Source of the DNA: a virus
Taxonomy: Duplodnaviria; Caudoviricetes
DNA length: 61,095 bases
Direction: 5' to 3' (one strand)
Virus record (IMG/VR): IMGVR_UViG_3300046788_000030
Location: 1-61,095 of that record
Shown: one piece after another, positions 179 to 61,095 of the stretch
Layout: every line of letters begins with the position of its first letter
How positions within the stretch are numbered: the stretch's first letter is position 1
The notes under the pieces: model-generated
The model's database searches: none
The model's input: only the letters and a program-made list of their open reading frames with translations
Told to the model about the DNA's origin: nothing
Translations under genes and position numbers: made by a program

Positions 179-187
179 GAGATTGCT

Positions 188-3900: not shown

Positions 3901-3901
3901 C

Positions 3902-6805: not shown

Positions 6806-6806
6806 G

Positions 6807-8572: not shown

Positions 8573-8575
8573 CAC

Positions 8576-12023: not shown

Positions 12024-12043
12024 CCGAATCAAAGGCTTACAAG
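12015..12043 (+). promoter_or_regulatory. Possible sigma70-type promoter for scaffold/capsid genes
   Basis: TTGACA-17 nt-TACAAG just upstream of the scaffold start. The -10 box is imperfect. Confidence 0.4.
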
Positions 12044-12051
12044 GACATCCC

Positions 12052-12969: not shown

Positions 12970-13000
12970 CTGACATTCATCTCGTACAAAGGATATAACC

Positions 13001-14041
13001 ATGGCAACTCCCGTCACCTACGGAGATATCACTCCCCGTACCGCTGCCTACGTCGTAAAGGATCTGCTCAAGCGTGCCATGCCGTACATGGTGCTGGAGA
13101 AATTCGGGCAGCAGTATCCCATTCCGCAGAACAACACCAAGAGCGCGAAGTTCCGTCGCTACTTCCTTGTCGGTGCCACCGGCTCGGCGGGCGCGGGCAC
13201 GGTAGGTCAACCGTACTTCGTGCCGATTGCGATCACGCCACTGGTCGAAGGCATCACGCCATCCGGCTCCCGGCTGACGTACGTCGACTACACGGTCCAA
13301 CTGAATCAGTATGGTGACTTCATCACCATCACCGATGTGGTGGAAGACACCCACGAAGACCCGGTGCTGCAGGAAGCCACCACGATCATGGCAGAGCAGG
13401 CGTCGCTGACCATCGAGACGGTGCGCTACAACATCCTGAAGGCGGGCACCAACGTCTTCTACGCGGGTGGTGTGGTTGGTCGCAGCACGGTTGTCACTCC
13501 GATGACGTTGGCGCTGCAGCGGCAGATCACCACGGCGCTGAATCGGCAGAATGCGAAGTTCATCACGTCGGTGCTGAAGTCGACACCGGACTATCGGACG
13601 GAGCCAATCGAGGCCGCGTACATCGCGCTGATCCATCCGGACTGCGAGACCGATGTCCGCACCATGACCGGTTTCATCAGCACCAAGCAGTACGGCACGA
13701 CCACGCCATGGGAGAACGAAATCGGCTCGGTCGAGCGTGTGCGTTACCTTACCTCCACAGTGTTCGCGCCGTTCCCCGACGCGGGTGGTGCCAAGGGTCT
13801 GATGCGTTCCACCAGCGGCACGCTGGCGGATGTGTACCCGATCCTGATCATCGCTCGCGATGCGTACGGCATCGTGCCGTTGCGCGGCAAGGATTCGCTG
13901 ACGCCGATGGTGGTCAATCCGAAACCGGCGGCTGGTGACCCACTGGGTCAGCGTGGTACGGTGGGCTGGAAAGCGTGGCAGTCGGCGGTCATCCTGCAAG
14001 ACGCCTTCTTCATCCGCTGCGAAGTCGCGGCGACGGCGTAA
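13001..14041 (+). CDS. Major capsid protein, N4-gp56 family
   Basis: YGDI.PRTAAY, KFRRY, LxEG.TP, QYG....TD, EIG.VE.VR and DPLGQRG.VGWK motifs of this family. Confidence 0.92.
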   Translation: MATPVTYGDITPRTAAYVVKDLLKRAMPYMVLEKFGQQYPIPQNNTKSAKFRRYFLVGATGSAGAGTVGQPYFVPIAITPLVEGITPSGSRLTYVDYTVQLNQYGDFITITDVVEDTHEDPVLQEATTIMAEQASLTIETVRYNILKAGTNVFYAGGVVGRSTVVTPMTLALQRQITTALNRQNAKFITSVLKSTPDYRTEPIEAAYIALIHPDCETDVRTMTGFISTKQYGTTTPWENEIGSVERVRYLTSTVFAPFPDAGGAKGLMRSTSGTLADVYPILIIARDAYGIVPLRGKDSLTPMVVNPKPAAGDPLGQRGTVGWKAWQSAVILQDAFFIRCEVAATA

Positions 14042-18072: not shown

Positions 18073-21000
18073 GTGGCTGATCCTGTCTTTCCCGGTTTAC
18101 CGTTTCCAAAGGTTGCACCGGCCCTAGATCCCCGCATTGCCGCGTATGTTCAGAGTGCGCGGATGCATTGGGGTATGCCAGAGCCGCAGGAAGCCGCGCC
18201 TGCGCCGCCACCGCCACCTCCCGAGAAGCAGGGGTTCCTGACTGACGTTGGCCACGGCTTCGCCCGTGGCGCGGCAGTGGCACTGCCTGAGATGGCAGGG
18301 CAGGCGTTGAAGGCGTTCGGTGCGGATGAACTGGGCAAGTCGCTGGTGGAGGGTGCCCGCGCCCGCGAGCATGACCCGCTGTACCAAGTCAATCAGGGCG
18401 GTTGGGGTGAGGCGGCATCGAGCGTAGTGCCCGCACTGGCAGCGGCAGGTACTGCCCTTATCCCCGGTGTTGGTGAGATCGCAGGCCCAGCGATAGCTGG
18501 TGGCTTGCTGTTTGGCGGATCGCAGTACACCGAGACGCGGGAGAAGGGTGGCAGTGTCGGACAGGGGCTGGCTGCGGGGGCCATACAGGGCGTAGGGCAG
18601 GCTGCCATGTCGGCGGTAGGGGGTAAGCTGCTGACCGGTGCCACCAGCATGTTCAGGAAGCCTGCAGCGCAGGCGCTGATGGATGATTACGTCGCACCGC
18701 CGTTGCTGGGGGTGGGACGCACGTTGGCTAATACCCTCAAGGCTGGGGCGATACAGGTGCCGGTGCAGGCTGCTGCGGCGGGTGGTGTGGCAGGCGTCGA
18801 GTCTGGGCTGCCGAATACGCCGGGTATGGGCGAAGCGGCTTTGGGGTCAGTTGGTCCGACGCTGAAGATGACAGCGTTGATGGCACCGTTCGGTCTGGCA
18901 GGTACTGCCTACAACAATGCACAGAAGCGGGCAGTCGGTGCGACTACTGCCAATCCCATTGATCCTGCCAAGTTGAATGAAGGATCTATCAAGGACCGGC
19001 TGAAAGCATCAAGAATAATAGCCAGTGACATGAAGTCCAGTGATCCGGATGCTGCCGCTGCATGGCATCAGCAAGCGATGCTGGCCATTGCCGCCAACAA
19101 GCCAGTCGAGATGAAGGTTGGTTGGAACTTCGATCCCTTGGCATTGTATACAGAACAACCACCTGCCACGCCGCAGGGGCCGCAGCAGTTGGCATTGCCA
19201 CCACCTACCAGAGAGCTATACGACGAGACGCAGCGTGGTGCCACTGCTGGCATGAATGAAGAACAACGACAGGCACAGCAACGGTTTGAAGAAGCGACTG
19301 CAGCACACTATGCTGAACGTGATGCATTTGCGGCAGATCAGAAACGGCAGTGGGATGAGTATGAAGCGAAGGTAACTGGCAAGTCACCCCTTCCTGAGAT
19401 ATTGACTCCGGAAGAAGTAACCGGCAAGCAGTTGCCCGGTGAGATCGTTACCAGTGCGGAAGTGACTGCCAATTTGGCACGGGAACAGCGGGATGCTGCT
19501 GCGCGGGCCGAGGCGGGGGTTACCACGACACAGGAAGCACAGGCATTGGCAGCACGCCGTGAAGCACAGAGGGCAGCAGAAGAAGCAGGCAGGCCGCTAC
19601 CGACAATCGAGGGACCGCCAGAACAGAAGGTGGTGGAGTCAGACAAGACATTACCGAAACTTGATGCAGAACTGACACGACGTGAGGAGCCACTGCCGCA
19701 GTTGCCACTGCAACGTGAGGAGCCGCTGCCGCATGTGCTGACTGCCGGAACGGCGAAGGAAGAACAGCGGGTACGTGAGGAGCAGTTGGCACGGCAGCAG
19801 GAAGACCAGCGGATTCTGGAATCGAATGCGGCAGCCAAGCTGACACCTACGGAGCAGCGTGATTTCCTGCGCTCGCTGGAGAACGATAAGCCAGCACGCG
19901 ACCGTGCTGCGGAGATGTCCGAAGATGAGATGCGGGCACGGCTGAAGGCGTATGCAGAGCAGGAAGAAGCCGCGCTGGCGAAGATCACCAAGGATGCACC
20001 GGAGGTCATCTACGACGAGCAGGGCACAGCAATCTGGAAGGCCACCAAAGAAGATCGTACCAAGTGGGTATTGAATGCGCTGGGTGGCAAGACACCCAAG
20101 GCGTTGCGGGAGAGTCTGGTCGATCTGGGACCGGCTGAACTCGCAGCGCGGCTCAAGGCACAGTGGGAAGCACGCGGTGGCGAGTCGCCCAATGCGCCTG
20201 CCTACATGTCCAAGCTGGACGCCATGTACAAGAGCATCACTGGCGAAGACATCCGTGGCAAGCCTGTGGAGAAGCCAGCGGCTGAGATACCTGCTGGTGA
20301 AGTTGCGCCACCACCTACCGGCAAGGAAGCAGCCCCTGAAGTGCCTGCCGGGGCGAAGGTGGAGGGACTGACTGAACCACGTACGGAACAGCACCAGAAA
20401 GCATTCGATTCATTGACGCCTGATCAGCAGAAATATGTCGACTCATTGCCTGTAGATCAACAACAAAAATTATTGAGTGGCGTTGCAAATACTGCAGACA
20501 TCAAGACTGCTGAAGCAGCACCGAAAGAACCACCTATTGTGCAGTTTCGCAAGGATGCTGCAGCTATAGCGGCTGACCTACCAGCAGTACCAGAAGGGCA
20601 TGTACGTCTGTGGCGTGGTAATCGTCCAGATGAAGTTGGTAAAGCTACAACATTCACCAATGATCTTCCGGGGATTGCACTGCCATTTCACAAATCGTAT
20701 GGAGGAAAACTTTCCTACGTAGATGTACCTGCTGCCGATTCGGCGAAGTATGAACAGAAGGTAGCTGTGGCCCCCGGTGCGGAATTCAATGTGCCTGCAG
20801 AAGTTGCAGCAAAGGCGCGTGTCTACGAATCGAAGGAAGAAATTAAGGCAGCCGCCGAAACACAAGCGGTGGTGGACCACGGTGCTACTGTGATGGGGGT
20901 GACAAAAGAACAGGGAGCCAAGGCTGCCAAGGCGTTGGCAAATGAAAAGGTTGCTGAAGATAGCTTCAATGCCAAGATAGAAGCCGTTGATGTTGCTGTT

Positions 21001-24000
21001 GCTAATAAGACCATGACAGAGGAACAGGGGGCCGATGCCTATGCGAAGATCATGGCCGACTCCATGGCAGAGAAGACCAACAATGACACTCAAGGCCGGG
21101 GCATCGCTGGCTTCAGTGACGAACAGCTAGGCAAGGTGGTTGGCAAGACGGCAGAGGTGACCAAGGCGCTGAACCATATCGCCACCACGCACAAGGATGC
21201 GGCGACGCGGGAGATGGCGGCGTTGTTCGGCAAGCAGTTGCCGTCGGCGACGATCAAGGTCATCGAGAATGCGGACTTCGATGGGGCACGGTACCGGCCG
21301 CGCACCAACACCATCGAGGTTGGCCGGGGTGGCATGAACACCCTGACTCTCATGCACGAGACCACGCATGCGCTGACGCATGCCGCATTGGATCGTGCGC
21401 TGGCTGCTGAACTGAAGGACAGCAAGACGCTGACGCCCAGTGAGCAGGCAGAGGTGGGTGCGCTGAAGTCTGTGCGTGAGGTGATGGACGAGTTCTACAA
21501 GAAGTACAACAAGAACGATCCGTCGCATGTACTGGCGTTGAGCAGCCCGCACGAGTTCGTATCCGAGGGATTGAACAATCCGACCATCCGTGCGGCGCTG
21601 GGCGACAAGGGGTGGAAGAAATTTGCCAATTCGCTGTTGCAGGCGTTGCACATCGACTTCAGGTTTGAGACGCAGTTCAACAAGCTGCTGGATGCATCGA
21701 AGGCGTTGTTCGGTGATCCCAACCGCAACTCGACGGAGGTGTTCAACAATGCACTGGTGGACCGCTATCCCAACAGTCCGCTGGGTGCGTTTGGGCGGCT
21801 GTCCAGTTTCCTCAACAGCATCCCCGGCGTGTCCACCGCACTGAGTGGTGCGAGCGACAGGTTCACGAAACACAGCATCGACAGCCTGAGTCCACGACAG
21901 GCGTTCAATATGCACGGCTGGTTCACCCTGCACGATCACGAGCGTCGGATGGAGATGATGCGCAAGGACGTGTGGAACAGGTTCCCTGCTGCCGGTCCTG
22001 CCGTCGACAAGGTGAACCAGTGGTTCACCAGTTTCCGTCAGGTTGCCGAGGGCCGTTCGTCGGATAGTCACAAGTTGCTGAACGATCCCGGTGGTACGCA
22101 GGAACATGGCCAGCGCATGATGGCGATGGACAAGCTCAGTCCCAAGGGCATGGAGATCATGGGTGAGATGGCGCGTGATGCCGTGGCTACCGGTGCCCAT
22201 CCCAAGTACAAGACACTGGCTGATGCGCAGAAGGAGAATCCGACGCTGACACAGGCGCAGTTCGATCACCCTGCAGCGGTGCGGGCACGGGCCAAGTACG
22301 AGCAACTGACGCAGATATCGAAGGCGATGGAGGGCCGTGGCGCGACGGACACGCCGCTCAAGGTCTACGAGGCAGGATTGGTGAAGAACCAGTTGATGAA
22401 TGCCCAGCGCCACGCCCAGATGCTGTGGGGCGAGGTCAAGGGCGATGGCTTTCCATCCGAGGCAGGACTCGACTTTGCCGCGCATCTGCGCAATGCGGAT
22501 CGCACGCCGATTCCAGTGGAGCAACAACTGTCTCGTTTGCAGAAGGCCATCAATGGCGTGATGAAGGAGTCGAAGGCGGATGTGCAGCGGGCAGAGAATG
22601 CGGCGGTAGCTGAACCGGATGCACAGAAGGCAATAGCCAAGGCAGTGGCTAAAGCGGAGAAGGCCAATGGCAAGCCCTTTACTGCTGCAGAACGTACTGC
22701 TGCGACTACCGAAGCAACTAACAAGACAAAGGAAGGTTTGGCGTTGGCAGAGAAGATGCGCCACGATACGATGGAAGGCATGCAGGCCGCGTACGAACAG
22801 CAGAGCAAGCTGCCGTATTACCACCGTGGGCGCGAGGGCACGCACTTCATCGTGTTCGATGTCAAGGGCGGCGAAGAGGAATGGAACCGGGTGGGCAAGG
22901 TGGTCGACGGGATGAACCGCGACTGGCGCGAGATGCTGCCCGACGGTTCGCGCCGGGTGTACATGAAGTTCACCGATCAGCTTTCCCACACCGAGGCGGT
23001 CTCCAAGCTTGCCGGATTGAGTGATCTGTTCGAACCGGATTCGTACGGGGCTGGACTCATTGGCGAACGCAACAAGTTTGCAGCGGGGGCCACGCCCGCA
23101 TTCATCCGCTCTGCCGAGAGGCGCATCGATGGTCTGGAGAAGGCGACCGATGCCGCCAAGGACCAGATGAAGCAGGCGTTGCATGACCTGTACATCGGCC
23201 AGCAGCCAGAGACTTCACCACTCAAGAACAGGATGATGGCTGACAACACCAATGGTGCCAGCCGCGACACTACCAAGATGTACATGAACAACATGGAGAT
23301 GTCCAATCGCGCCTTGGTGAATGCGCGGTCGGCGATGAGGTTCGCCGATGTGTCGACCAATCTGGATGCGGCAATGACCGAATTGCGTGCCGTGCCGGGT
23401 GCGGACATCAACGACATCCGTACGCAGATTGGGGGCTACGTCAACGAGTTGTACAAGAAGCAGGCAGACATGCAGCAGCCGCTGGAGTACAGCCAGACGA
23501 TTGCCGCGATGCGTGCGGCCACCGGGTTCTGGCGACTGGGACTGTCGCCCATGTACATGCTGACTGTTGGCTTGCAGCCTGCACAGGTCACGCTGCCTAC
23601 GCTGGGTGCCAAGTACGGGTATGCCGATGCGGCAATGTCGATGGGACGCAACACCGCGCTGGCGTGGGGGATGCTCAAGTCGGCGATGACGACCGGTTGG
23701 ATGTCGAGCAAGGGCGACTCGTTGTTCAACAGGCTGGCGAAGACATCGGACATCACGCTGGAAGCGTCGAAGCTGCGCAACAAGGACGGGACGCCAGTGC
23801 TGAGTGAGCGGCAACTGGACCTGATGGATCACCTGATGGACACCGGGCTGATCAACTTCGGCATCACGCAGCAGATGCTGCGCATGGACCCCAACGACAA
23901 GAGCATCGGCGCACGGGCTGCACGCATTGCACAGACCATACCGCACTACATCGAGATGTCCAACCGGATCGTCTCTGCCTTGTCCGGTTATGAGTTGCAC

Positions 24001-25206
24001 TACAACAAGCTCGCGGCGGGCAAGGACTTGTCCCCGGCGGAAATGAACAGGATTCACGAAGAGGCGAAGCGTGAGGCCATCACCACCATCCGCGAGTCCG
24101 ATGGTGATCATTCGCAGGTGAACGTGGCGCGGCAACTGGGGCAGCGCGGCATACTCAAGCAGACTACGCCACTGGTGGTGGGCTTCGGCCAGTGGAGCAT
24201 CCAGATGAGCGAGTTCCTTGCGCGGCAGTTCCAGCGTTCGATCAGCGCCAAGTCCACCAAGGAAGAGCGGATCGAGAGCCTGAAGATCATGGGTGGTGTT
24301 TCGGCCATGACTGGGGCGATGGCCGGTGCGCTTGGCTTGCCGTTCATGAACGTGGCGACGGGTGTCTACAACGCCGTGATGCAGATACTCCAAGACGAAG
24401 GGGAGACGCCGCCCAATGCCGAGGAGATGTTCCGCCATGGTGTGCGCAGCCTGTTGTCCACAGTATCGGACGACAAGGAAAGCGTGAACAAGATGGAGGA
24501 GATCTTCTCACGCGGGCTGCCACGGGCCGCTGGCTTCGACATGAGCAGCCGTGCGGGCTTTCAGGATCTGCTGCCGTTCACCGGGCTGCTGACCAACCGG
24601 GCCAGAATCTCCGACCGTCTCAAGGACGGCTCGTTCGATTTCATGGGACCGGCATTCGGCGCTGCTGCTGGCGTGGTTACCGGGCTGCAGGCGTACAAGG
24701 ATGGTGATTACGTCAAGGGTAACAACGAAGCACTGCCGGTGTTCGCCCGCAATATCGCCAAGGCCATGCGCATGTCGCAGTATGGCTATGAGACCACAGG
24801 CAGCAACAACCAGATTCCTATCCCGGTTACCAACTGGGATACCTTCATGCAGGGGATGGGTGCAACGTCGGGTGTCAAGGCCGAGTACAACGAACAGGCG
24901 TATGCGCAACAGGTCAACCAGAAGATCCTGATGGACCGGCATCAGGTGGTCATGAACGAGATCCTGCGCAATGCGGAGCATGGCGATTATCAGGCGATGC
25001 AGCAGTCGATGACGCGCAGCATCCAGTTCGGTTTGCAGCAGCCGCAGTTCCGCCAGTTCGACGTGCCCGGTGCCATGGTCGGACGGGCCATGCAGCGGGC
25101 CATCGGCGGCATGCCGGATGTCGGCGGCTTGCTGTTGAACAAGTCCCAGTTGCCGTACTACATGATGCGGCAGGGCATGATCCCGCCACCACAACAGGTG
25201 CAATGA
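18073..25206 (+). CDS. Giant internal virion / polyvalent DNA-transfer protein with ART-like and zincin domains
   Basis: 2377 aa. G/A-rich hydrophobic N-terminus. VRLWRG...TFT...YVDVP...EF segment. LMHETTH...HEFVSE zincin. C-terminal region (G..GLPF, SRGLP, GP..G) typical of large podoviral ejection proteins. Confidence 0.8.
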   Translation: MADPVFPGLPFPKVAPALDPRIAAYVQSARMHWGMPEPQEAAPAPPPPPPEKQGFLTDVGHGFARGAAVALPEMAGQALKAFGADELGKSLVEGARAREHDPLYQVNQGGWGEAASSVVPALAAAGTALIPGVGEIAGPAIAGGLLFGGSQYTETREKGGSVGQGLAAGAIQGVGQAAMSAVGGKLLTGATSMFRKPAAQALMDDYVAPPLLGVGRTLANTLKAGAIQVPVQAAAAGGVAGVESGLPNTPGMGEAALGSVGPTLKMTALMAPFGLAGTAYNNAQKRAVGATTANPIDPAKLNEGSIKDRLKASRIIASDMKSSDPDAAAAWHQQAMLAIAANKPVEMKVGWNFDPLALYTEQPPATPQGPQQLALPPPTRELYDETQRGATAGMNEEQRQAQQRFEEATAAHYAERDAFAADQKRQWDEYEAKVTGKSPLPEILTPEEVTGKQLPGEIVTSAEVTANLAREQRDAAARAEAGVTTTQEAQALAARREAQRAAEEAGRPLPTIEGPPEQKVVESDKTLPKLDAELTRREEPLPQLPLQREEPLPHVLTAGTAKEEQRVREEQLARQQEDQRILESNAAAKLTPTEQRDFLRSLENDKPARDRAAEMSEDEMRARLKAYAEQEEAALAKITKDAPEVIYDEQGTAIWKATKEDRTKWVLNALGGKTPKALRESLVDLGPAELAARLKAQWEARGGESPNAPAYMSKLDAMYKSITGEDIRGKPVEKPAAEIPAGEVAPPPTGKEAAPEVPAGAKVEGLTEPRTEQHQKAFDSLTPDQQKYVDSLPVDQQQKLLSGVANTADIKTAEAAPKEPPIVQFRKDAAAIAADLPAVPEGHVRLWRGNRPDEVGKATTFTNDLPGIALPFHKSYGGKLSYVDVPAADSAKYEQKVAVAPGAEFNVPAEVAAKARVYESKEEIKAAAETQAVVDHGATVMGVTKEQGAKAAKALANEKVAEDSFNAKIEAVDVAVANKTMTEEQGADAYAKIMADSMAEKTNNDTQGRGIAGFSDEQLGKVVGKTAEVTKALNHIATTHKDAATREMAALFGKQLPSATIKVIENADFDGARYRPRTNTIEVGRGGMNTLTLMHETTHALTHAALDRALAAELKDSKTLTPSEQAEVGALKSVREVMDEFYKKYNKNDPSHVLALSSPHEFVSEGLNNPTIRAALGDKGWKKFANSLLQALHIDFRFETQFNKLLDASKALFGDPNRNSTEVFNNALVDRYPNSPLGAFGRLSSFLNSIPGVSTALSGASDRFTKHSIDSLSPRQAFNMHGWFTLHDHERRMEMMRKDVWNRFPAAGPAVDKVNQWFTSFRQVAEGRSSDSHKLLNDPGGTQEHGQRMMAMDKLSPKGMEIMGEMARDAVATGAHPKYKTLADAQKENPTLTQAQFDHPAAVRARAKYEQLTQISKAMEGRGATDTPLKVYEAGLVKNQLMNAQRHAQMLWGEVKGDGFPSEAGLDFAAHLRNADRTPIPVEQQLSRLQKAINGVMKESKADVQRAENAAVAEPDAQKAIAKAVAKAEKANGKPFTAAERTAATTEATNKTKEGLALAEKMRHDTMEGMQAAYEQQSKLPYYHRGREGTHFIVFDVKGGEEEWNRVGKVVDGMNRDWREMLPDGSRRVYMKFTDQLSHTEAVSKLAGLSDLFEPDSYGAGLIGERNKFAAGATPAFIRSAERRIDGLEKATDAAKDQMKQALHDLYIGQQPETSPLKNRMMADNTNGASRDTTKMYMNNMEMSNRALVNARSAMRFADVSTNLDAAMTELRAVPGADINDIRTQIGGYVNELYKKQADMQQPLEYSQTIAAMRAATGFWRLGLSPMYMLTVGLQPAQVTLPTLGAKYGYADAAMSMGRNTALAWGMLKSAMTTGWMSSKGDSLFNRLAKTSDITLEASKLRNKDGTPVLSERQLDLMDHLMDTGLINFGITQQMLRMDPNDKSIGARAARIAQTIPHYIEMSNRIVSALSGYELHYNKLAAGKDLSPAEMNRIHEEAKREAITTIRESDGDHSQVNVARQLGQRGILKQTTPLVVGFGQWSIQMSEFLARQFQRSISAKSTKEERIESLKIMGGVSAMTGAMAGALGLPFMNVATGVYNAVMQILQDEGETPPNAEEMFRHGVRSLLSTVSDDKESVNKMEEIFSRGLPRAAGFDMSSRAGFQDLLPFTGLLTNRARISDRLKDGSFDFMGPAFGAAAGVVTGLQAYKDGDYVKGNNEALPVFARNIAKAMRMSQYGYETTGSNNQIPIPVTNWDTFMQGMGATSGVKAEYNEQAYAQQVNQKILMDRHQVVMNEILRNAEHGDYQAMQQSMTRSIQFGLQQPQFRQFDVPGAMVGRAMQRAIGGMPDVGGLLLNKSQLPYYMMRQGMIPPPQQVQ

Positions 25207-40437: not shown

Positions 40438-40806
40438 TTATGCTGCGCTGGGCAAGATGCGGCTAGGGCTTTTTACAGCCGCTTTGAAATCAACGATTTC
40501 GCACTCGATCATTTTTCGCTGTTCCGTCATGGAATATGAATACAGAGGCAGGTTCATCATCTTGCGCCACACTAGAAAAGCAATCAGGTTAGCAACCTTC
40601 TGCATGCAATAAGGTTGTATTGAACTCTGTCCGAATATCCACTTGCCGATGGTCTGCGGATGCACACCTACCAGTTCCGCCAGTATCGTCGTGGTCATTT
40701 GTTGCCTGACTGCCAACTCGCCCAAGTATGGTCCCAATGCTGTCCAGTCTCGTTCACGCGCTTCCATGATTCGCTCCAGTGTGCTGAGTCTGTTGCCTTT
40801 GCTCAT
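40438..40806 (-). CDS. Cro/CI-type helix-turn-helix regulator
   Basis: MTTTILAELVGVHPQTIGKWIFG HTH signature. RBS GAGGA before ATG 40806. Confidence 0.75.
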   Translation of the reverse strand: MSKGNRLSTLERIMEARERDWTALGPYLGELAVRQQMTTTILAELVGVHPQTIGKWIFGQSSIQPYCMQKVANLIAFLVWRKMMNLPLYSYSMTEQRKMIECEIVDFKAAVKSPSRILPSAA

Positions 40807-40820
40807 CTGTTCCTCAAGGT

Positions 40821-40845
40821 AAAAAGGGGGCAGCAATGCCGCCCC
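40821..40845 (-). terminator. Rho-independent terminator
   Basis: Minus strand GGGGCGGCA-TTGC-TGCCCCC-TTTTT. Confidence 0.8.
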
Positions 40846-49879: not shown

Positions 49880-49904
49880 AAAAAGTAGGGGGCCGCAGCC
49901 CCCT
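49880..49904 (-). terminator. Rho-independent terminator
   Basis: Minus strand AGGGGGC-TGCG-GCCCCCT-ACTTTTT. Confidence 0.8.
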
Positions 49905-54831: not shown

Positions 54832-55209
54832 TTATTGCTCCTCGTTGGTGGTGGTGCTGGTTACTACTACCTCGTCCGTCTGTTCCTTGAATACGTCGGG
54901 GCCGTGTTGCGCGTGCATCTGCTTGGTGTAGGCGATGGTTCGTTGCAGTACAACGTTGTATTCCTTCTGCACTGCTTCCAAGCGCAGCAGCATGTAGTTG
55001 ATCTGCTGCCTCGGGGTCATGCGGCTGAACAGCAGCACCCGCTCCAAGTCGTCGGCTCTGATGCAGTCGACCGTCGGCTCCTTGCTATAAGTACGCTTGA
55101 CCGGCAGGCAGCCCAGCATCTCCCACGCCTGCCTTTCGGCAGGCGTCAGCAGGGTGAGGGGGAAGGTGTAGGGGTGGATGCTGTTGACGATGCTCTCCAG
55201 CTTGGTCAT
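54832..55209 (-). CDS. Hypothetical protein
   Basis: ATG 55209 overlaps the AAA stop (ATGA). RBS GGAG. Confidence 0.65.
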   Translation of the reverse strand: MTKLESIVNSIHPYTFPLTLLTPAERQAWEMLGCLPVKRTYSKEPTVDCIRADDLERVLLFSRMTPRQQINYMLLRLEAVQKEYNVVLQRTIAYTKQMHAQHGPDVFKEQTDEVVVTSTTTNEEQ

Positions 55210-56312
55210 TTGCTCACTCCGTTGATCAGCTTGCTGATGTGCGGTGCCGTCACCCACAACTTGTAGTCACGGCAGCTATGGATGAACGACGTATGCTCGT
55301 CATTGACTTTCTTCAGGCGCTCGTTCATCAGGTTGAAGAAGCACACCTGCATCTCGTTCTGGTAACGTTGCATGTAGGTGGCGATAGGCACGAAGGTATT
55401 GCGGTTGACCATGTAGGCCAGCATGGTACTGATGGCGTACTGCTCGTGCAGCAGCTTCGACACCGATGCCTTCTTGGGGTCGGCCACGATGTCTTCCAGC
55501 GTGGTGATGTTGTCGAGCATCATGTTGAAGCTGTGGAACGCTGCCGCCATGCCGCTGCCGATGCTGCGCGGGATCTCCTCGGGCATCAGCGCCACGCCCG
55601 AAGTCTCCACGTCGGTCATGATGTTGGACACCCTGTCCCACGAGCGCAGGCTGGCCCAGATGCCCTGCTTCCCTTCTTGGAACAACAAGTCGTTCTCCAG
55701 CAGCTTGGGGTTTTCGAACACCTCCTTGTAGTTGTCGATCATGGTGGGATTGCGGATGCCGAAGGCAGCCACCCGCTCGTGCTTGGACTTCACCGCCTCG
55801 ACCATGTAGGGGATGTCCAGTTCCAGATTGAAGGAGAGGAAGCGCGACTGGTTGGCCCGCGACTCCACTTTCACCCCCGACTTGTCGCCGATGCGATTGC
55901 CGTCACCGACGAAGATGACGTGCGGCGGGATGCGGAAGTTGCCACCCACATCCTCGTGATTCCACATCTTCTGGAAGCCACGGCTGGTCTCCAGCCCCAT
56001 CAGCGCCTTCTCACCGACATAGATGATGCCGCACAACTCCGGTGTCTTGTAGTAATTGGGCAGGGTGCCGTCGTAGATCTTGCGCATCACCATCGCTTCC
56101 ATGTCCGGCACCGACATCACACCATCGGTAGGGGCCATGGTGCCGCCGTCCCACACTTCGAAGTGGAACTGCGGATCTTGCTGCTTGCGCATGCGGGCAT
56201 ACTCGGTGATCTGCCACGTCTTGCCCCATGCCGGTGGCGATTTGAGTTCGATGTTGTGTCCGCATCTTTCGGCGCGGCCCAGCAAAGCGGGTACTTGAGT
56301 CAGTGTTGCCAT
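55206..56312 (-). CDS. MoxR-like AAA+ ATPase with atypical Walker motifs
   Basis: SPPAWGKT Walker A, GIIYVGE at the Walker B position, GNR..D.SG sensor, SRF Arg finger, S.RSW..VS motif. Confidence 0.8.
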   Translation of the reverse strand: MATLTQVPALLGRAERCGHNIELKSPPAWGKTWQITEYARMRKQQDPQFHFEVWDGGTMAPTDGVMSVPDMEAMVMRKIYDGTLPNYYKTPELCGIIYVGEKALMGLETSRGFQKMWNHEDVGGNFRIPPHVIFVGDGNRIGDKSGVKVESRANQSRFLSFNLELDIPYMVEAVKSKHERVAAFGIRNPTMIDNYKEVFENPKLLENDLLFQEGKQGIWASLRSWDRVSNIMTDVETSGVALMPEEIPRSIGSGMAAAFHSFNMMLDNITTLEDIVADPKKASVSKLLHEQYAISTMLAYMVNRNTFVPIATYMQRYQNEMQVCFFNLMNERLKKVNDEHTSFIHSCRDYKLWVTAPHISKLINGVSK

Positions 56313-56335
56313 TTGCTTCTCCTAGTTAATGGTTA

Positions 56336-56524
56336 CTACTTGTTGATAGCGTTGATTGCATAGTCCAGTGCTTGCAAGCGCAACTGGAACTCGACCATCG
56401 CCATTGCCTTCTCCGACTCGCGCCACGAACGCTTGCGCTTGATGGACCTGATGTTCTCTTCCTGCACCATGCGCAGGTGTTCCAGCCGTTTCAGCACTTC
56501 TTCCTTCGTCATTGCTGTTGCCAT
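56336..56524 (-). CDS. Hypothetical protein
   Basis: MTKEEV...L...L.YAI.AI helical ORF filling the gap. Confidence 0.65.
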   Translation of the reverse strand: MATAMTKEEVLKRLEHLRMVQEENIRSIKRKRSWRESEKAMAMVEFQLRLQALDYAINAINK

Positions 56525-57033
56525 GCTCTGAGTCCTTTCAGTTGTCTACGGATCTTGCGAACTGCATTGATGGCGCGTATCTGTTTCTTGCACCATGCGG
56601 CCTCACGGGCTTCCAGCCGCTTGATCTTCACTGCTCGTATTGCTTCCTTGGTTGGTTTCGGTTTGGGTGGCTTGGGTTCAGGCGTGAGCAGCCCTACGAA
56701 ATACCCACGCTTGATACCACTGTTGATGCAGGTGTACAACGCCCGCTCGGGACTGGATACCTTGTTGCTTAACCATAGGTCGTTACACAGCCCTTGCAGG
56801 ATGGAGTACCAGCCCCGCGAGGGGGCGTAGACTACGTGATAGCGTTCGTTGGTAAGCCGGGTAACGTCGGTGTAGCTACGGCCATGACCCACGCTGATGG
56901 TGCCTTGGAAGGTCTCGCCGGTTACCGTTCGCCACAGCTTGCGCAGGATGCGTTCGCCTTCCACCGGATCGATCTCATCGGGGGTGTGGATCTTGAGGAA
57001 GTTCTCCCACAGCCGTTCGGATCTGGGTGTCAA
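56509..57033 (-). CDS. Hypothetical basic protein (TTG start)
   Basis: RBS AAAGGA lies inside the palindromic site. K/R-rich C-terminus. Confidence 0.7.
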   Translation of the reverse strand: MTPRSERLWENFLKIHTPDEIDPVEGERILRKLWRTVTGETFQGTISVGHGRSYTDVTRLTNERYHVVYAPSRGWYSILQGLCNDLWLSNKVSSPERALYTCINSGIKRGYFVGLLTPEPKPPKPKPTKEAIRAVKIKRLEAREAAWCKKQIRAINAVRKIRRQLKGLRAWQQQ

Positions 57034-57060
57034 TTGTCAGTTCCTTTCTGACTTCTGGCA
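57028..57060. promoter_or_regulatory. 33-bp palindromic site, copy C (inverted relative to A and B)
   Basis: TGTC aatt GTCAG ttccttt CTGAC ttct GGCA. Covers the RBS and TTG start of 56509..57033. Confidence 0.8.
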
Positions 57061-57064
57061 GGGG

Positions 57065-57301
57065 CTACAGATGCGCGGAGCAGACATACTCCAGCATGTA
57101 GGCCATGTAGTCGGGGTCGTTGAGTTGGTTGGTCACCTTGTTGATATGCTCCATGCGCGGGGCTACTACTACCTCGCGCAGGCGTTGGTGTTTGTCATGG
57201 CCCTCATCTCTCAGAATTAAAAGAGCTTCGTCAATATCGATCTTGCGGAACAGCAGCCCTACGTTGTAGATGGGTTTGGTGGGTGTGATCATGGACGCCA
57301 C
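57065..57301 (-). CDS. Hypothetical protein
   Basis: IN..T.Q.ND..Y.AYMLEY motif. Confidence 0.65.
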   Translation of the reverse strand: MASMITPTKPIYNVGLLFRKIDIDEALLILRDEGHDKHQRLREVVVAPRMEHINKVTNQLNDPDYMAYMLEYVCSAHL

Positions 57302-57534
57302 TCCCGGTTCATTCTTTCCCTTTCGCCTTCGGCATCCCGCTGCAATGCCACGTTCTCATCGATCAAGTCCTGCACCAACTCATCGGTGCTGTACACCGTG
57401 CACAAGGCGAGCAGTGCCTCGGCATTGCCCTTGCCCGCTTGGTCGATGACGTGCCACACCACGTCGACTTTCTCCTTGGTCTCGTCGATGCTCTCGATAC
57501 AGCCTGCTACATGGTTCACATGCCAGTCCATCAT
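57289..57534 (-). CDS. Hypothetical protein
   Basis: RBS GAGGA. ATGA overlap with the upstream gene. Confidence 0.65.
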   Translation of the reverse strand: MMDWHVNHVAGCIESIDETKEKVDVVWHVIDQAGKGNAEALLALCTVYSTDELVQDLIDENVALQRDAEGERERMNREWRP

Positions 57535-57809
57535 TCATCCTCACTTGTCAGTACATCGGTGGTTGGGGGTTCGTACTGATCGTTAACGTTGCCATCGATC
57601 ATCACCGCCAGTGGTATCAGTTCGTAGTCGTCATTGGTAGCGATGGGGTAGTTCACGGCGCACATCACGGCAACGGGGGTTCTATCCGATTTTCGCACCG
57701 CCGACATCAGGCAGATGTCCCCTTCCTTGATGGCCTTGACCAGCAGGTCGAAGTTCCTGATCTGCTCCTTGGTCAGGGGCTGGGTGTTGGGGGCTTCGAT
57801 CTTCTTCAT
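57531..57809 (-). CDS. DUF6117-like protein
   Basis: NF..L..A...G...LM......G/T.P..V.CAV......P.....DGN....Y.PP pattern. Confidence 0.65.
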   Translation of the reverse strand: MKKIEAPNTQPLTKEQIRNFDLLVKAIKEGDICLMSAVRKSDRTPVAVMCAVNYPIATNDDYELIPLAVMIDGNVNDQYEPPTTDVLTSEDE

Positions 57810-58180
57810 CACAGCCTCACGATCAGGTATTGAATGGCCTGCTCCGGGGTCCAGTCCCAATACTCCTTCAGCCCGTACTTGAACTTGATGGAGTCGATGC
57901 CGCGCAGCGAGCCACGACCACGCAGGACGATGCTCGACACGCGCACCCGGTGGATGGTCATGGGTGGGGTAGGCAGGCCCATGGCCAGCGTTTTGGGCTG
58001 GATGGCGTATTCGTACCAGCCCCCTTTCACGAGGTTCAGCACCTCGTGCAGGTACATGTAGCGCACCAGCACCGGAGTCTTGGTCTTCTTCCTGTCCCCG
58101 GTCTCGACGGCGTTGAACGCCTCGCGGCAGAGGATGGCGTGGTTGCGGTCCAGCACTGCTTCGTCAATCATCGCGCTCAC
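57809..58180 (-). CDS. Hypothetical protein
   Basis: GTG 58180 (or ATG 58171) start, coupled to the mini-ORF upstream. Confidence 0.65.
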   Translation of the reverse strand: MSAMIDEAVLDRNHAILCREAFNAVETGDRKKTKTPVLVRYMYLHEVLNLVKGGWYEYAIQPKTLAMGLPTPPMTIHRVRVSSIVLRGRGSLRGIDSIKFKYGLKEYWDWTPEQAIQYLIVRL

Positions 58181-58218
58181 TCGTCCCTCGCTTGCAGCAC
58201 TTCCTGTACGTCGTTCAT
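58177..58218 (-). other. 13-codon mini-ORF MNDVQEVLQARDE
   Basis: RBS AAGGA. ATGA overlap upstream and GTGA overlap downstream. Confidence 0.5.
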
Positions 58219-58403
58219 TCCCGTTCCTTATCGCTGTAAACTGGTGGCATATCCACACCGGTGGTCTTGATGGTGACCAGCACTGGCGGCCGGTCGGCTG
58301 CCGGGTTCAGCACCTGCAACAGTGCCTGTGCTTGGTTGCTGGCATCGATGGTGCTGGTCCAGCAGTAGCCATTGGCGTATATCATTTTGACTTGGTAGTT
58401 CAT
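58215..58403 (-). CDS. Hypothetical protein
   Basis: RBS AAGGA. ATG 58403 overlaps the upstream stop. Confidence 0.6.
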   Translation of the reverse strand: MNYQVKMIYANGYCWTSTIDASNQAQALLQVLNPAADRPPVLVTIKTTGVDMPPVYSDKERE

Positions 58404-59143
58404 TTTGGTTCCTTGGTCATGTTGACGATAGTGGCCCGCAACTGGTGGTTCTCGTCCTGCAGCTTCCGGTACTGCTGCATGGTGCCGTCCATGTCCCTCT
58501 GCAGGGCGTGGAAGCGACGCTCCCATTCATTGCATTCGAATTTCCATGCTTCACTGCGCTGCTCCACCTCCTTGATGTGGTCGATGGCCTCGCGCACCAC
58601 CTTCTTCTCGTTCTCATAGGCTATGTCCTGCATCACTTCGGTCAGCGCAGTGAGCAGCGGCTTGTCGGGGTCACCCTCGTTCCACACCTTCTGCAGGGTG
58701 TCCTTGAACTTTGCCGTGGCATCCTCGGGCCGGTTGCCGTCGCACACGGCGAACACCCCATCGGGGATGCGCAGGCTCTCCGCTGCCGTGGCCTTGCCCG
58801 CCTTGTAGTGGTCCTGCACCGCCTTGCTGCACGCCTCGTTCCACAACGGCAACTCGGTGTTCTCCTGCGAAGGGATCACGCACTCGTTGTCGTCGCAGTG
58901 GAAGGGCTGGCCAGCCTCGTACAGGCGGCCTTCGATGGTCTTGCCTGCTTCCAAGGCCACGGCGTTGACGACGAAGCCACCCATGGGGTTGCTGTAGTCG
59001 CGCAGGGCCGCGTTGCCGTAGCCCTCGATCTTGTTGCCGATCTTCACCGATCTGGTATTCGGCTCGCCTTCCTTGGTGATGGTGTAGAAGAACTCGCCCA
59101 TGGTGATGGTGGCGAACGGGGTGTAATGGTAGTGCTTGGTCAT
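58400..59143 (-). CDS. Hypothetical protein with C-terminal coiled coil
   Basis: RBS TAGGAG. 247 aa with strong GC3 codon bias. Confidence 0.75.
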   Translation of the reverse strand: MTKHYHYTPFATITMGEFFYTITKEGEPNTRSVKIGNKIEGYGNAALRDYSNPMGGFVVNAVALEAGKTIEGRLYEAGQPFHCDDNECVIPSQENTELPLWNEACSKAVQDHYKAGKATAAESLRIPDGVFAVCDGNRPEDATAKFKDTLQKVWNEGDPDKPLLTALTEVMQDIAYENEKKVVREAIDHIKEVEQRSEAWKFECNEWERRFHALQRDMDGTMQQYRKLQDENHQLRATIVNMTKEPK

Positions 59144-59162
59144 GCGATGCTCCTATTAAGTT

Positions 59163-59195
59163 TGCCAGAAGTAAGGTTGGACCTGACTTTTGACA
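59163..59195. promoter_or_regulatory. 33-bp palindromic site, copy A
   Basis: TGCC agaa GTAAG gttggac CTGAC tttt GACA. Lies between the stop at 59196 and the RBS of 58400..59143. Confidence 0.85.
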
Positions 59196-59453
59196 TTACT
59201 GCAACACCTTCGTGAGAAGGTGCACAATGGCCCGCGCCAGTTCGACACGGGCGTCACTGGCCTTGTGGATGGCCTTGATGGGCCGTGCGGCCAGCACCTC
59301 GGCCACGCTGGCTTCAACCATATCGTACGTACTACCGTCCCGCTCCTGCGCCTCGCGCTCGGCCACCGACTGGGGCCGGTTTTTCTTCATGGCCATGGTG
59401 GCCTTGAACTTGGCGGTGCGCTTGGCCTGTGCCTCGGGTGACAACTTAGGCAT
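59196..59453 (-). CDS. Hypothetical basic protein
   Basis: RBS GAGGTG. 85 aa. Confidence 0.65.
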   Translation of the reverse strand: MPKLSPEAQAKRTAKFKATMAMKKNRPQSVAEREAQERDGSTYDMVEASVAEVLAARPIKAIHKASDARVELARAIVHLLTKVLQ

Positions 59454-59715
59454 TCAGTTCACCTCTCTTGATCCAGATCTTGATGGTGCCGGTGGCGCTG
59501 TTGTGGTAGGTGCCCAGCAGGTGGCCAAGGGACACGTCATTGACTTCGATGACGGTCCCCACCTTGCTGATGGTGGCTTCCCACAAGGCAGCCTTGTGCG
59601 CGTTGAGGCGGATGGAGTAGCACCTGTGGGGCAGGTAGGTGTTGGTGGTGGCGTCGAGCAGCCTGTAAGGGCGGCGTACGTCCTGCCTCGGCACCAGCTT
59701 GAGGGCTGCACTCAT
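59446..59715 (-). CDS. Hypothetical protein
   Basis: RPYRL.D......LP.R.Y......A.....W..VG..IEV pattern. Confidence 0.65.
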   Translation of the reverse strand: MSAALKLVPRQDVRRPYRLLDATTNTYLPHRCYSIRLNAHKAALWEATISKVGTVIEVNDVSLGHLLGTYHNSATGTIKIWIKRGELNA

Positions 59716-59728
59716 TGGTTGTTCTCGT

Positions 59729-60181
59729 TCATTGCTTACCTTTCAGTGGTGTAGTGAGTGCTTTTGCTGTAGACCAGCCATGCTTGATGCGGAAGTGCAG
59801 GGTGCACAACAACATCTGCAACTCGCGTGCCCAGTTGGCCATGCTCATGGTGCGGCCTTGATAGGTGAGCATGTGCGATCCCCTGTTGGCACGCTTGTTC
59901 TCCTGCTGTTGCAGCGGCGTGGCCCAACGGCAATTGCTTGGGGTGTAGTTCTTGGCATGATCCAAGCGGTCGAGGGTGCACCCTTGCGGGCGCTCCCCCA
60001 TGTCGGCAAGGAAATGCTTGAACTGCGACCATCGCTGGCAGACGCGGATGCCCCTGCCCCCGTAGTGATGCCAGTCCTTATGATTGGAATTGCCGCATCG
60101 TGTGTGCATGGAGCGCCACGACCTATAGGTAGGAGTGACAGCGCCCTTTACTGCGTGCCCGTGCTGGTACTTGTGGTGCAT
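59729..60181 (-). CDS. HNH-type homing endonuclease-like protein
   Basis: HG......TY.SW..M..RC.......YGGRGI.VC.RW..F..FL.DMG.RP...TLDR.....Y.P.NCRWAT...Q..NKR. RBS AAGGAG before ATG 60181. Confidence 0.85.
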   Translation of the reverse strand: MHHKYQHGHAVKGAVTPTYRSWRSMHTRCGNSNHKDWHHYGGRGIRVCQRWSQFKHFLADMGERPQGCTLDRLDHAKNYTPSNCRWATPLQQQENKRANRGSHMLTYQGRTMSMANWARELQMLLCTLHFRIKHGWSTAKALTTPLKGKQ

Positions 60182-60434
60182 CCTGTTGCTCCTTGAAGTA
60201 TTGCCTTGCAAGTTGGATGTCGATGTAGAACACCTGCTTGGTGACAAGATTTTTGAGCGTCACATCCTTGAAGCGGTGGCTGTCGAGGGCCATCTTGAAG
60301 GCAGCCTTGGCTGCAGGCTGGGCATCCTGATAGTTGCGGCCGACTTGGGTGTACACCGTTTCGAACATCGACCCGGTTACGGTTGCGAACACGGCATAAG
60401 TGCCGGTGCTGGTCCTGCTGAAATCGAGGAACAT
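60123..60434 (-). CDS. Hypothetical protein
   Basis: RBS TAGGAG. 3' end overlaps the HNH gene by 59 nt. Confidence 0.65.
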   Translation of the reverse strand: MFLDFSRTSTGTYAVFATVTGSMFETVYTQVGRNYQDAQPAAKAAFKMALDSHRFKDVTLKNLVTKQVFYIDIQLARQYFKEQQDAPQVPARARSKGRCHSYL

Positions 60435-60443
60435 CTATTTCTC

Positions 60444-60599
60444 CTAATGAGTGGTACTGATGGTACTACAGATACGACGAAGACGGAGGTAGAGATCCGC
60501 CGCTTGACGCGCTTCGGCTATTGCCTTCTTCCTGCGTTGTGCGTTGCCTGACAGCCCCGTCTTCAGGGGCTGCAGCTTGTAGCTGTTCTTGAGTCTCAC
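60444..60599 (-). CDS. Small basic hypothetical protein (51 aa, not in ORF track)
   Basis: MRLKNSYKLQPLKTGLSGNAQRRKKAIAEARQAADLYLRLRRICSTISTTH. GTGA overlap, RBS AAGGA, exactly fills the gap. Confidence 0.6.
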   Translation of the reverse strand: MRLKNSYKLQPLKTGLSGNAQRRKKAIAEARQAADLYLRLRRICSTISTTH

Positions 60600-60835
60600 T
60601 GCTGGAATTCCTTGTTGAGGATGGCTACCTTCATCAGCGCGTGGATCTCGCGGTCCCTGCGCTTCTGCACTGCCTTGGCGGCGAGGGCTTTATCGTGGTC
60701 CGTCGGGAAGCTGACCACCTGCACGCCACGGGTTTCGGCCAGCACCCTGATTTTCTTCTGCTCCTTGGCGATGTTCATGCGGTAGGTGAATGCCGCTGCC
60801 TTGCTGCGTTGTGCCCTGCGTTCTGCGCGATTCAT
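60596..60835 (-). CDS. Hypothetical basic protein (MNRAERRA start)
   Basis: RBS TAGGAG. First gene downstream of the long non-coding region. Confidence 0.7.
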   Translation of the reverse strand: MNRAERRAQRSKAAAFTYRMNIAKEQKKIRVLAETRGVQVVSFPTDHDKALAAKAVQKRRDREIHALMKVAILNKEFQQ

Positions 60836-60937
60836 GTGAATCTCCTATCGAGTCGTACTGCTGTTGGGATGTGTACTGCACTGGTATTGAAGCCTGTTGT
60901 TCAAGCCTCAATATAAAGTGCCCTTGGGCTGCACCAT

Positions 60938-60970
60938 TGCCAAAAGTCAGATTGGAACTGACTTTTGACA
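60938..60970. promoter_or_regulatory. 33-bp palindromic site, copy B
   Basis: TGCC aaaa GTCAG attggaa CTGAC tttt GACA. CAAAAGTCAG/CTGACTTTTG is a perfect 10-bp inverted repeat. Confidence 0.85.
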
Positions 60971-61095
60971 TACATCGGTGCAGGTACGTGAGGGGGCCGT
61001 TTAGACTCTATTTCAAGTCATGCGTCCTTGTCCTCCAAGGGGATCGTAAGTCGGCTGTACGTATAGCTATCGAGGCACCAGTACCTGCATGCCCG

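Follow-up and report, generated by a model that had tools for sequence, protein, structure and literature searches.

What are the three long palindromes that punctuate the early-gene arm of IMG/VR virus record IMGVR_UViG_3300046788_000030, and what would read them? The record is linear, 61095 bp long and estimated to be 98% complete; we analysed it over its whole length and refer to it as the window. A sequence-only reading had placed three 33-bp palindromes with 13-bp arms and a 7-bp spacer (13-7-13) in it, about 1.8-2.1 kb apart and in intergenic gaps or at a gene start. A degenerate 33-mer scan found exactly these three dyads, designated A, B and C, and none elsewhere in the 61-kb record, while dinucleotide-preserving shuffles yielded no match (0/100). 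A half-site scan of all 61095 bp returned the six arms of the three sites plus one isolated half-site with one mismatch at 33394, and its backwards-read control gave 0. Neighbouring sites were 1775 bp and 2135 bp apart, and all three fell within the first 4 kb of the minus-strand arm. We conclude that the three dyads are real and non-random, and that they are one example of a kind of dyad repeat that occurs in the early arm across the clade. The reading that we favour, tentatively and with a probability of roughly 0.4, is that the dyads are predicted duplex-DNA binding sites of a lineage-specific symmetric regulator and would work mainly as roadblocks inside the early operon; they would also be cassette junctions.

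The placement described earlier held at each site. Site B was found in the leader or control region, 102 nt 5' of the first early open reading frame (ORF; start 60835). Site A occupies a 52-nt gap between a stop at 59196 and an ATG at 59143, the only sizeable intercistronic gap in its neighbourhood; the TAA stop of the upstream gene adjoins the site, which ends 19 nt 5' of the ATG. Site C fills a 31-nt gap past a stop at 57065 and, as had been claimed, is inverted and covers a ribosome-binding site (RBS) and start codon: its spacer AAAGGAA is likely to function as the Shine-Dalgarno sequence of ORF 56509-57033, which starts at the TTG within the TTGACA of the site and to which homologues align across the full length (177-column alignment, 174-aa query). 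The inversion relative to A and B is seen both in the end asymmetry (TGCCA...TGACA) and in the spacer. The TTGACA hexamer reported in one arm was seen in C as well as in A and B, where it is on the strand opposite to the genes. The spacers ATTGGAA, GTTGGAC and AAAGGAA differ at 2-3 of their 7 positions.

Dyad families of related phages

Single-protein searches of IMG/VR with the 247-aa gene and the ATPase gave no close relatives, and a degenerate core scan of IMG/VR returned 38 loci, none of which had a full dyad. DNA similarity to cultured phages was limited to an HNH fragment, the 247-aa protein had no tblastn match, and the nearest cultured phage was Pseudomonas phage Rollin, with 48% identity in the major capsid protein and 32% in DNA polymerase. 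An alignment of ATPase homologues (43-57% identity) led to two viral records and eight metagenome loci, and a VWA alignment added 80 more distant loci. Among the latter, a blind search for palindromes that recur picked out five loci in addition to L183 (the G001 record), namely L198/L199, L219, L244/L248 and L261; follow-up covered L244, L198 and L219, with L261 left out. Here G000 is the window record, G001, G002 and G003 are related records, and L-numbers are loci.

Each usable relative carries its own dyad family (Table 1). The dyads of G002 were found at 173, 1381, 2826, 3728, 6210 and 13533 and nowhere else (span 173-13565). The ends of the G001 record overlap by ~30 bp, so that its dyads constitute one contiguous span of ~14 kb. 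Backwards-read controls of the G001, G002 and G003 scans gave 0, and in all four records scanned whole the dyads were restricted to the early arm. Rollin was the one cultured phage found to have analogous dyads; its record (L007/L046, GenBank OR577172) has a run of N at ~987-1084 and a stretch of ~9.5 kb (51782-61282) without annotated genes.

The families have a common anatomy. Gene-proximal dyads end 12-30 nt 5' of the start codon, directly before the Shine-Dalgarno sequence, and upstream stop codons often adjoin the dyad or fall inside it. A dyad stands directly 5' of the ATPase gene in 6/7 genomes (L047, L048, L050, L244, L198 and L219), the window being the exception. These ATPase-preceding dyads end 12-30 nt before the ATPase start, yet their sequences are unrelated between lineages, indicating that position is conserved and that sequence changes in concert within a genome. 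Conservation in related phages, the absence of which the sequence-only reading had named as a counter-argument, thus takes the form of relatives carrying their own dyads, with positions kept and sequences different. When A, B and C were aligned without gaps to the six sites of G002, the closest relative of the window, the two sets showed the same 33-bp length and ten invariant symmetric positions (G2, C4, A5, T10, C11, T15, A24, T29, G30 and C32). The inner 17 bp differ, with a 5-7-5 arrangement in the window and 7-3-7 in G002, and positions 7-9 and 25-27 of the G002 sites are non-complementary and unpaired. Both orientations occur, as C versus A and B in the window and as mixed centres in L048 and L198. 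An extended RBS context, TTAACTAGGAG(A)A..ATG, recurs at minus-strand starts of the window (for example 56312, 54249, 53298 and 51923), with stop codons placed just 5' of the Shine-Dalgarno sequence; G001 uses ACTAAAGGAG likewise. RBS motifs of the TTAACTAGGAG type precede at least six other minus-strand window genes that have no dyad.

Comparison of relatives also bears on cassette boundaries. The early arms are highly variable between relatives, and 3/4 homology breakpoints between L244 and L248 are at dyads. A 640-bp unit consisting of a dyad, an RBS and a gene lies between two dyad copies in L244, where L248 has a single copy; an indel bounded exactly by two dyad copies is the outcome expected of homologous exchange between repeats. 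Between L050 and L054, just 1 of ~5 breakpoints is near a dyad. In contigs assembled from four public soil/rhizosphere runs, A, B and C are spanned as they are arranged in the reference record. Rearranged joints with breakpoints in the spacers, which the sequence-only reading had envisaged, were absent from the contigs of these four runs, contigs being an assembly product that drops rare variants. One contig of run X21 joins 58602 to 56930 with 14 letters between, which would skip C and five small genes; this joint is not located at a dyad and may come from another organism.

The structural genes of the window are on the plus strand (188-37399) and include those for the terminase, the portal, the major capsid protein and a 2377-aa protein. 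On the minus strand, from ~60835 down to 37508, are the early genes and those for replication, among them the genes for a Prim-Pol/helicase, an SNF2 helicase, a PD-(D/E)XK nuclease, a family A DNA polymerase, a VWA/DUF2201 protein and a MoxR-like ATPase. Neither end of the record is complete: an ORF is truncated on the left, and on the right public contigs continue beyond 61095, by at least 509 nt and at least 669 nt. As the record is cut at both ends, more dyad copies may exist off the window. The sequence beyond 61095 may also contain the early promoter and any first immediate-early gene of the kind found in G001 and G002. A separate contig in 3/4 runs (X17, X21 and X23) matches site B over its 33 bp and is otherwise unlike the window for at least 255 nt on either side. 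Its downstream flank has the 10-nt string CGCACAAGCA in common with the flank of a G001 control-region dyad. This contig may represent a fourth copy in the unassembled end of the phage, or another phage with the same dyad.

Table 1. Positions of the dyads and other features of the window, and dyad families of the relatives
Feature	Record or locus	Position	Strand	Description
Site B	window	60938-60970	+	TGCCAAAAGTCAG-ATTGGAA-CTGACTTTTGACA; 12/13 arm positions complementary
Site A	window	59163-59195	+	TGCCAGAAGTAAG-GTTGGAC-CTGACTTTTGACA
Site C	window	57028-57060	minus orientation	spacer AAAGGAA (reverse complement)
TATATT, -10-like hexamer	window	60910..60915	-	22 nt downstream of B; no -35 partner; not called by promoter scan
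Extended RBS motif AACTTAATAGGAG...	window	59144..59162	-	between site A and ATG 59143
Early-gene arm with dyads	window	56509..60835	-	mostly small ORFans plus one HNH endonuclease (59729-60247)
MoxR-like ATPase gene	window	55206..56312	-	nearest window dyad is C, two genes upstream
XRE-type helix-turn-helix (HTH) protein	window	40438..40836	-	homologues begin at Met11, the ATG at 40806
Dyad family	G002 (locus L047)			66175 bp, terminal repeats, complete; 33-bp YGYCAA..TCCAAY-N3-ATTGGA..TTGRCA; 6 copies
Dyad family	G001 (locus L048)	55664-68753 plus 21 and 797		68753 bp; 20-bp TTTGTGAKA-NN-TMTCACAAA; 11 copies
Dyad family	L050/L054			partial; 22-bp ATTTAAGACA-NN-TRTCTTAWWT; 4 and 3 copies
Dyad family	Rollin			61282 bp; 25-bp dyad; 5 copies, clustered in non-coding control region
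Dyad family	L244/L248	963-7104 of 56018 bp (G003)		ATTTAATC-N-GATTAAAT, 17 bp; eight copies in G003, all within this interval
Dyad family	L198/L199			ATTAAT-N4-ATTAAT; seven copies
Dyad family	L219			GTTAAA-N3-TTTAAC; six copies

Promoters, hairpins and candidate binders

The promoter scan called no sigma-70-like promoter in 55500-61095, where 2.2 would be expected by chance. The same interval contained five terminator-like hits, none of them on the minus strand and none coinciding with a dyad. Dyads were rejected as intrinsic terminators because no such hit coincides with them and because the G001 dyads have a T-run before the stem and an A-run after it. They were likewise rejected as sigma-70 promoters because none was called, the TTGACA of A and B faces away from the gene strand, and site A stands only 19 nt from the ATG. 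Separate T-tract terminators are present in L047 (1101-1130), in G001 just past the first gene, and in L244 (3768-3795). In the window, a G+C-rich hairpin followed by a T-run at ~49880-49903 (minus strand) lies directly 5' of the DNA polymerase start and is likely an intrinsic terminator closing the early/middle operon.

In relatives with a strong promoter the dyad lies downstream of it. L048 has a sigma-70 promoter with a 12/12 match and a TG at 1371-1399, with a dyad at about +62; the 11/12 promoter of L047 at 2265-2293 has one at about +526; and the L244 promoter TTGACA-17-TAGTCT has one at about +49. Untranslated leaders of ~600 nt run from the consensus early promoter to the first substantial gene in L048 (1406-2017) and L047 (2300-2945), and contain two dyads and one dyad, respectively. 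A different arrangement is found in some control regions, at window site B, at the L047 dyad at 173 and at a G001 dyad that lies 33 nt before TGcTATAAT: there the dyad centre is ~50-56 bp upstream of a -10-like element without a -35 partner. Judged by these motifs, the three -10-like elements are putative promoters, and the centre of site B would be near -51 of a possible promoter with TATATT as its -10. L047 (1-1420) and the G001 ends (L057 1-1100 reverse complement plus L048 1-120) both open with a lone ORFan gene, which encodes a lysine/alanine-rich protein (254 aa and 198 aa, respectively) and has its own -35-less promoter, a strong terminator and dyads on both sides. The motif GTAGTTG recurs in the control regions of both. 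No relationship was detectable between these two first genes, and that of L047 is an ORFan (1 self hit).

Neither an RNA polymerase nor a sigma factor came up in PHROG, Pfam and PDB sequence searches, and dyads were rejected as T7/N4-type promoters because no RNA polymerase gene was recognised. PF00940 had no match in 5/5 records, in a search that also rang in none of its control genomes. The 2377-aa protein of the virion module (18073-25206, plus strand) has an HExxH motif, a proline/alanine-rich N-terminus and no PDB sequence match, and language-model features of its C-terminal half resemble LPD39/LPD38 polyvalent-protein domains (best score 0.97). It is probably an ejected polyvalent protein and not a virion RNA polymerase. 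In the StenR_269 paper (PMC10747016), a role as virion RNA polymerase is suggested, as a speculation, for the giant virion protein that related podophages carry, and the only grounds given there are size, helicity and lack of cysteine.

Folding of the dyads as single strands gave no consistent advantage to sense over antisense. Site B folds at -16.9 kcal/mol in the sense strand, with a G.U pair in the stem, versus -12.3 kcal/mol in the antisense strand; the corresponding values are -10.8 and -10.5 kcal/mol for site A and -5.4 and -10.0 kcal/mol for site C. G002 dyads showed a mixed preference, 2/4 sites of L050 fold at just -1.7 kcal/mol, and every distinct site sequence tested from L244, L198 and L219 gave 0 to -0.3 kcal/mol. 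Because folding is near zero in several lineages, hairpins cannot be what a function common to the class depends on. A dimeric duplex-DNA binder would instead be expected to leave half-sites that are symmetric, independent of orientation and arranged around variable centres. By our own count, the sense-strand mismatches of the window and G002 sites comprise 3 G.U and 6 A.C, the opposite of what a sense-RNA stem predicts. Since C is inverted, its sense-strand loop (AAAGGAA) differs from those of B (UUCCAAU) and A (GUCCAAC). Dyads were rejected as lambda-type nut/boxB elements because the sense loop is not the same at every site.

The sequence-only reading had considered operators for a phage repressor, with the HTH protein as the candidate. 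This protein is conserved in G001 and G002 (33-34% identity), and its predicted recognition helix (VHEQTVLRW) is identical in these two genomes, the dyads of which are completely different. The same helix despite unrelated dyads makes it unlikely that the HTH protein reads them, and we disfavour it as the binder because the helix does not co-vary with the dyads. What stands of the operator proposal is that the dyads would be protein-binding sites, the best-supported possibility; the named protein is its less likely part. The 79-aa first early protein begins MNRAERRAQRSK and gives the impression, from its sequence, of an arginine-rich N-terminus. Modelled from the single sequence it forms a two-helix hairpin (pLDDT 87.6, pTM 0.37), which is neither a ribbon-helix-helix nor an HTH fold, no fold search having been made; no homologue was found in the relatives. 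The 247-aa protein had no informative atlas hit. Its gene (58400-59143) and L047 2946-3725 (259 aa) are both just downstream of a dyad, and the two proteins have the motif LR[IV]P.GV..[VC][AC]DGN[RK]PEDA in common. The motif also resembles the ATPase consensus and may reflect a partial duplication.

A host factor had also been put forward. The degenerate 33-mer had 0 matches in 185,579 species genomes, and the 9-7-9 core had at least 120 single matches, one per genome and mostly in AT-rich taxa. No regulon-like clustering of this core was seen among the matches listed, which look like ordinary A-stem-T hairpins. These scattered single matches and the lack of any full-length match speak against a host regulon.

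Weighing the explanations

On the favoured reading, the dyads would be copies of a phage-specific cis element marking cassette boundaries in the early/DNA-metabolism arm. The element class would be common to a clade of mostly uncultured podophage-like viruses using the host RNA polymerase, with its own sequence in each lineage. A symmetric regulator, dimeric or tetrameric and lineage-specific, would recognise the dyads as duplex DNA and, from within the operon, serve chiefly as a roadblock or a looping element, as in the case of a 'stoperator'. Such a mode of action is suggested by the location of the dyads downstream of promoters, or ~50-56 bp upstream of those without a -35, and not over the core. 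The roadblock would time or shut off early expression, and the dyads, as short repeats, would also serve as junctions for the gain and loss of cassettes. We infer the protein binding, the binder and the regulatory outcome alike. Several points weigh against this reading. No dyad overlaps a recognisable core promoter, so the classical operator geometry is missing. The HTH protein, the sole conserved DNA-binding candidate, has the same helix in two genomes with differing dyads, and Pfam and PHROG scans of the early proteins brought up no further DNA-binding domain. Pair 3/31 of G002 is Watson-Crick in 6/6 sites with two pair types, which mildly favours base pairing, or else two duplicated subfamilies. 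The dyads adjoin Shine-Dalgarno sequences, as would fit a role in RNA or translation, the sense hairpin of B is a good one, and the first early protein seems arginine-rich at its N-terminus. Uniformity within a genome could, on the precedent of the promoter-early stem-loops (PeSLs) discussed below, arise by recombination-driven concerted evolution without a specific trans factor. Lastly, it is assumed that the distant lineages L244, L198 and L219 use their dyads in the same way.

The same adjacency to Shine-Dalgarno sequences raises a doubtful but substantial alternative at the RNA level, in which a transcribed hairpin or AU-rich operator by the RBS would control translation, mRNA processing or stability, or antitermination with the 79-aa protein as binder. 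Parallels for translation control, mRNA processing and antitermination are T4 RegA, the T7 RNase III sites and lambda nut/boxB, respectively. That gene-proximal dyads end 12-30 nt before starts is consistent with such a role, as are the presence of dyads in the transcribed leader wherever strong promoters are recognisable and the stronger sense folding of site B (-16.9 versus -12.3), after which the first ORF begins with the sequence given above. The ESAS elements described in part of PMC3203893, imperfect inverted repeats just 5' of an extended RBS, provide a precedent for the arrangement. The folding results point the other way: values of 0 to -0.3 kcal/mol in L244, L198 and L219 and of -1.7 for 2/4 L050 sites, together with an inverted site C that has a different sense loop and a weak hairpin (-5.4). 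So do the excess of A.C over G.U mismatches in the window and G002, the occurrence of several dyads in control regions far from any Shine-Dalgarno sequence, and the lack of a homologue of the 79-aa protein in the relatives. A role at the RNA level is thus weakened by hairpins that are poor or missing and that favour neither strand; of the RNA-processing signals suggested earlier, it is the fit with Shine-Dalgarno adjacency that persists. We also consider it possible, though unlikely, that the dyads are the cis half of a fast co-evolving, lineage-private early control in phages where neither RNA polymerase nor sigma factor nor repressor is recognisable, with a trans factor that would lie outside known DNA-binding and transcription families and might be injected. 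All copies would then be replaced in concert with positions kept, for example before the ATPase operon, as with T7-group promoters, and the dyad together with its RBS would at the same time form a portable adaptor through which new ORFan cassettes could be expressed as part of the early operon.

Concerted change can also be had without any binder, if the dyads act as scaffolds for recombination, or as repeats of a selfish or neutral kind, that are kept uniform by intragenomic recombination, shuffle early ORFan cassettes and act at most as generic spacers. The L244/L248 breakpoints, the 640-bp cassette between two copies and the variability of early arms argue for this explanation, as do PeSL-mediated shuffling in T4-like phages, documented in portions of PMC2839356 and PMC4122927, and the 17-bp direct repeat flanking Corndog gene 14 in an excerpt of PMC4351075. 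We nevertheless hold it to be quite unlikely, since positions are kept across lineages with unrelated dyads (6/7 before the ATPase) and symmetric positions have stayed the same in the window and G002 although protein identity is ~50%, both of which indicate selection on function. Moreover, only 1 of ~5 L050/L054 breakpoints is near a dyad, the contigs of the four runs contain no rearranged site joints, and dyads do not have the promoter-plus-terminator make-up of PeSLs. Fixed positions with concerted sequence turnover would equally suit private promoters or recruitment sites for a phage-specific transcription component, an injected or early protein, like the T7 and N4 promoter sets. The dyads are 15-33-bp AT-rich elements ending 0-20 nt before the Shine-Dalgarno sequence, so that leaders would be short; the scan of 55500-61095 called no sigma-70-like promoter; and the speculation of the StenR_269 authors (PMC10747016, in part) is of the same kind. 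This explanation is very unlikely when set against the absence of PF00940 from 5/5 records (with no hit in any control genome either), the features of the 2377-aa protein (HExxH motif, no PDB sequence match and an LPD39/LPD38-like C-terminal half), the consensus sigma-70 promoters that head the early arms of relatives, the use of both orientations and the lack of dyads in the late region. The G001 dyad core is TGTGA-N6-TCACA, which we take to be the CRP/FNR-family consensus, and host transcription-factor or nucleoid-protein sites exploited by the phage could be imagined on that account. A different dyad in each lineage with the same architecture, no 33-mer in the 185,579 species genomes and the unclustered single matches of the core (at least 120, among the matches listed) make this most improbable. 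Finally, the 13-7-13 geometry with one inverted copy had suggested lox/FRT-like core sites for programmed excision or inversion of early cassettes by a tyrosine recombinase. All three sites have this geometry, but the spacers differ in all three, the dyads of relatives are 15-25 bp with 1-6-bp centres, and no site joints were found in the contigs of the four runs. PF00589 matched G001 only among the four records, with no match in G000, G002 or G003, and PF00239 matched in 0/4, which bears out the earlier remark that no recombinase is in the window; a recombinase gene in the missing window end is unlikely. The lox/FRT explanation is in our judgement scarcely credible, and what survives of it is a weak evolutionary version. 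A 321-aa tyrosine integrase at G001:C1:37925-38383 (minus strand), near the HTH gene, is found in G001 only; given this integrase, some clade members may be temperate.

Known systems and meaning

A functional model for the favoured roadblock reading is that of stoperators, which parts of PMC9283540 and PMC3203893 describe as repressor sites dispersed through phage operons. Those of Cluster A mycobacteriophages (L5 gp71-type) are, in these accounts, alike in that a phage has its own set of many near-identical sites, located within operons in short intergenic spaces, and they act on elongation rather than on the core promoter, which is only proposed for the dyads. Multiple near-identical, phage-specific copies in short intergenic spaces are indeed what we found. 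The Cluster A motif co-evolves with its repressor, according to passages of PMC9283540, PMC6550527 and PMC3203893. Stoperators as portrayed there are 13-bp asymmetric, orientation-dependent sites for a monomeric repressor, distributed genome-wide in temperate phages, whereas the dyads are symmetric and 15-33 bp in length, do not depend on orientation and occur in the early arm only, with an integrase in 1/4 genomes.

Other parallels concern position. The Cluster K ESAS/SAS elements are imperfect inverted repeats with a variable spacer, directly 5' of an extended RBS, and they too have a lineage-specific consensus and conserved positions (PMC3203893, in the section on these elements). Site A and most gene-proximal dyads of the relatives are arranged in this way, as an analogy only and not as members, the sequences and hosts being unrelated. 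The 17-bp palindrome of Cluster O, in the portion of PMC4351075 that presents it, is 7-3-7, at or near gene starts, and follows no orientation rule. As far as these sources go, ESAS and the Cluster O palindrome belong to Actinobacteria siphophages, are unrelated in sequence and occur genome-wide, with >30 copies in Cluster O; the dyads, in contrast, are present in 3-11 copies in the early arm of Gram-negative-type podophage-like genomes. The PeSLs of T4-like phages resemble the dyads as motifs bounding early ORFan cassettes and as sites of two-copy indels (parts of PMC2839356 and PMC4122927), and boundary repeats with an indel of this type were seen in the relatives L244/L248. They are described as differing in that a PeSL combines a strong sigma-70 promoter with a terminator stem-loop, and the dyads contain neither.

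Two further comparisons are with recombination sites and with the operators of temperate phages. In loxP and FRT, a short asymmetric spacer separates two inverted arms of 13 bp each. The dyads depart from them in that the 7-bp spacer is not identical between copies, the window is without a recombinase, and relatives have other geometries. The conserved inverted repeats of phiC31 and the C1 operators of P1 occur in many copies in early regions, where one phage repressor binds them. Those systems differ in belonging to temperate phages with known repressors. Nothing equivalent came up in a literature search on palindromic repeats among early genes of lytic phages.

Some actinobacteriophages have for years been known to carry dispersed dyads at gene starts, for which no mechanism has been given. 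The present finding extends them to an uncultured soil/rhizosphere podophage-like clade, and it constrains explanations through confinement to the early arm, conserved positions, concerted turnover and orientation independence. Further constraints are the absence of hairpin potential in several lineages, the separate host-type promoters and terminators, and the coincidence with cassette indels. If the dyads are read by a new family of regulators, this would provide a set of orthogonal protein-operator pairs, and would explain how early ORFans are swapped without disturbing operon expression.

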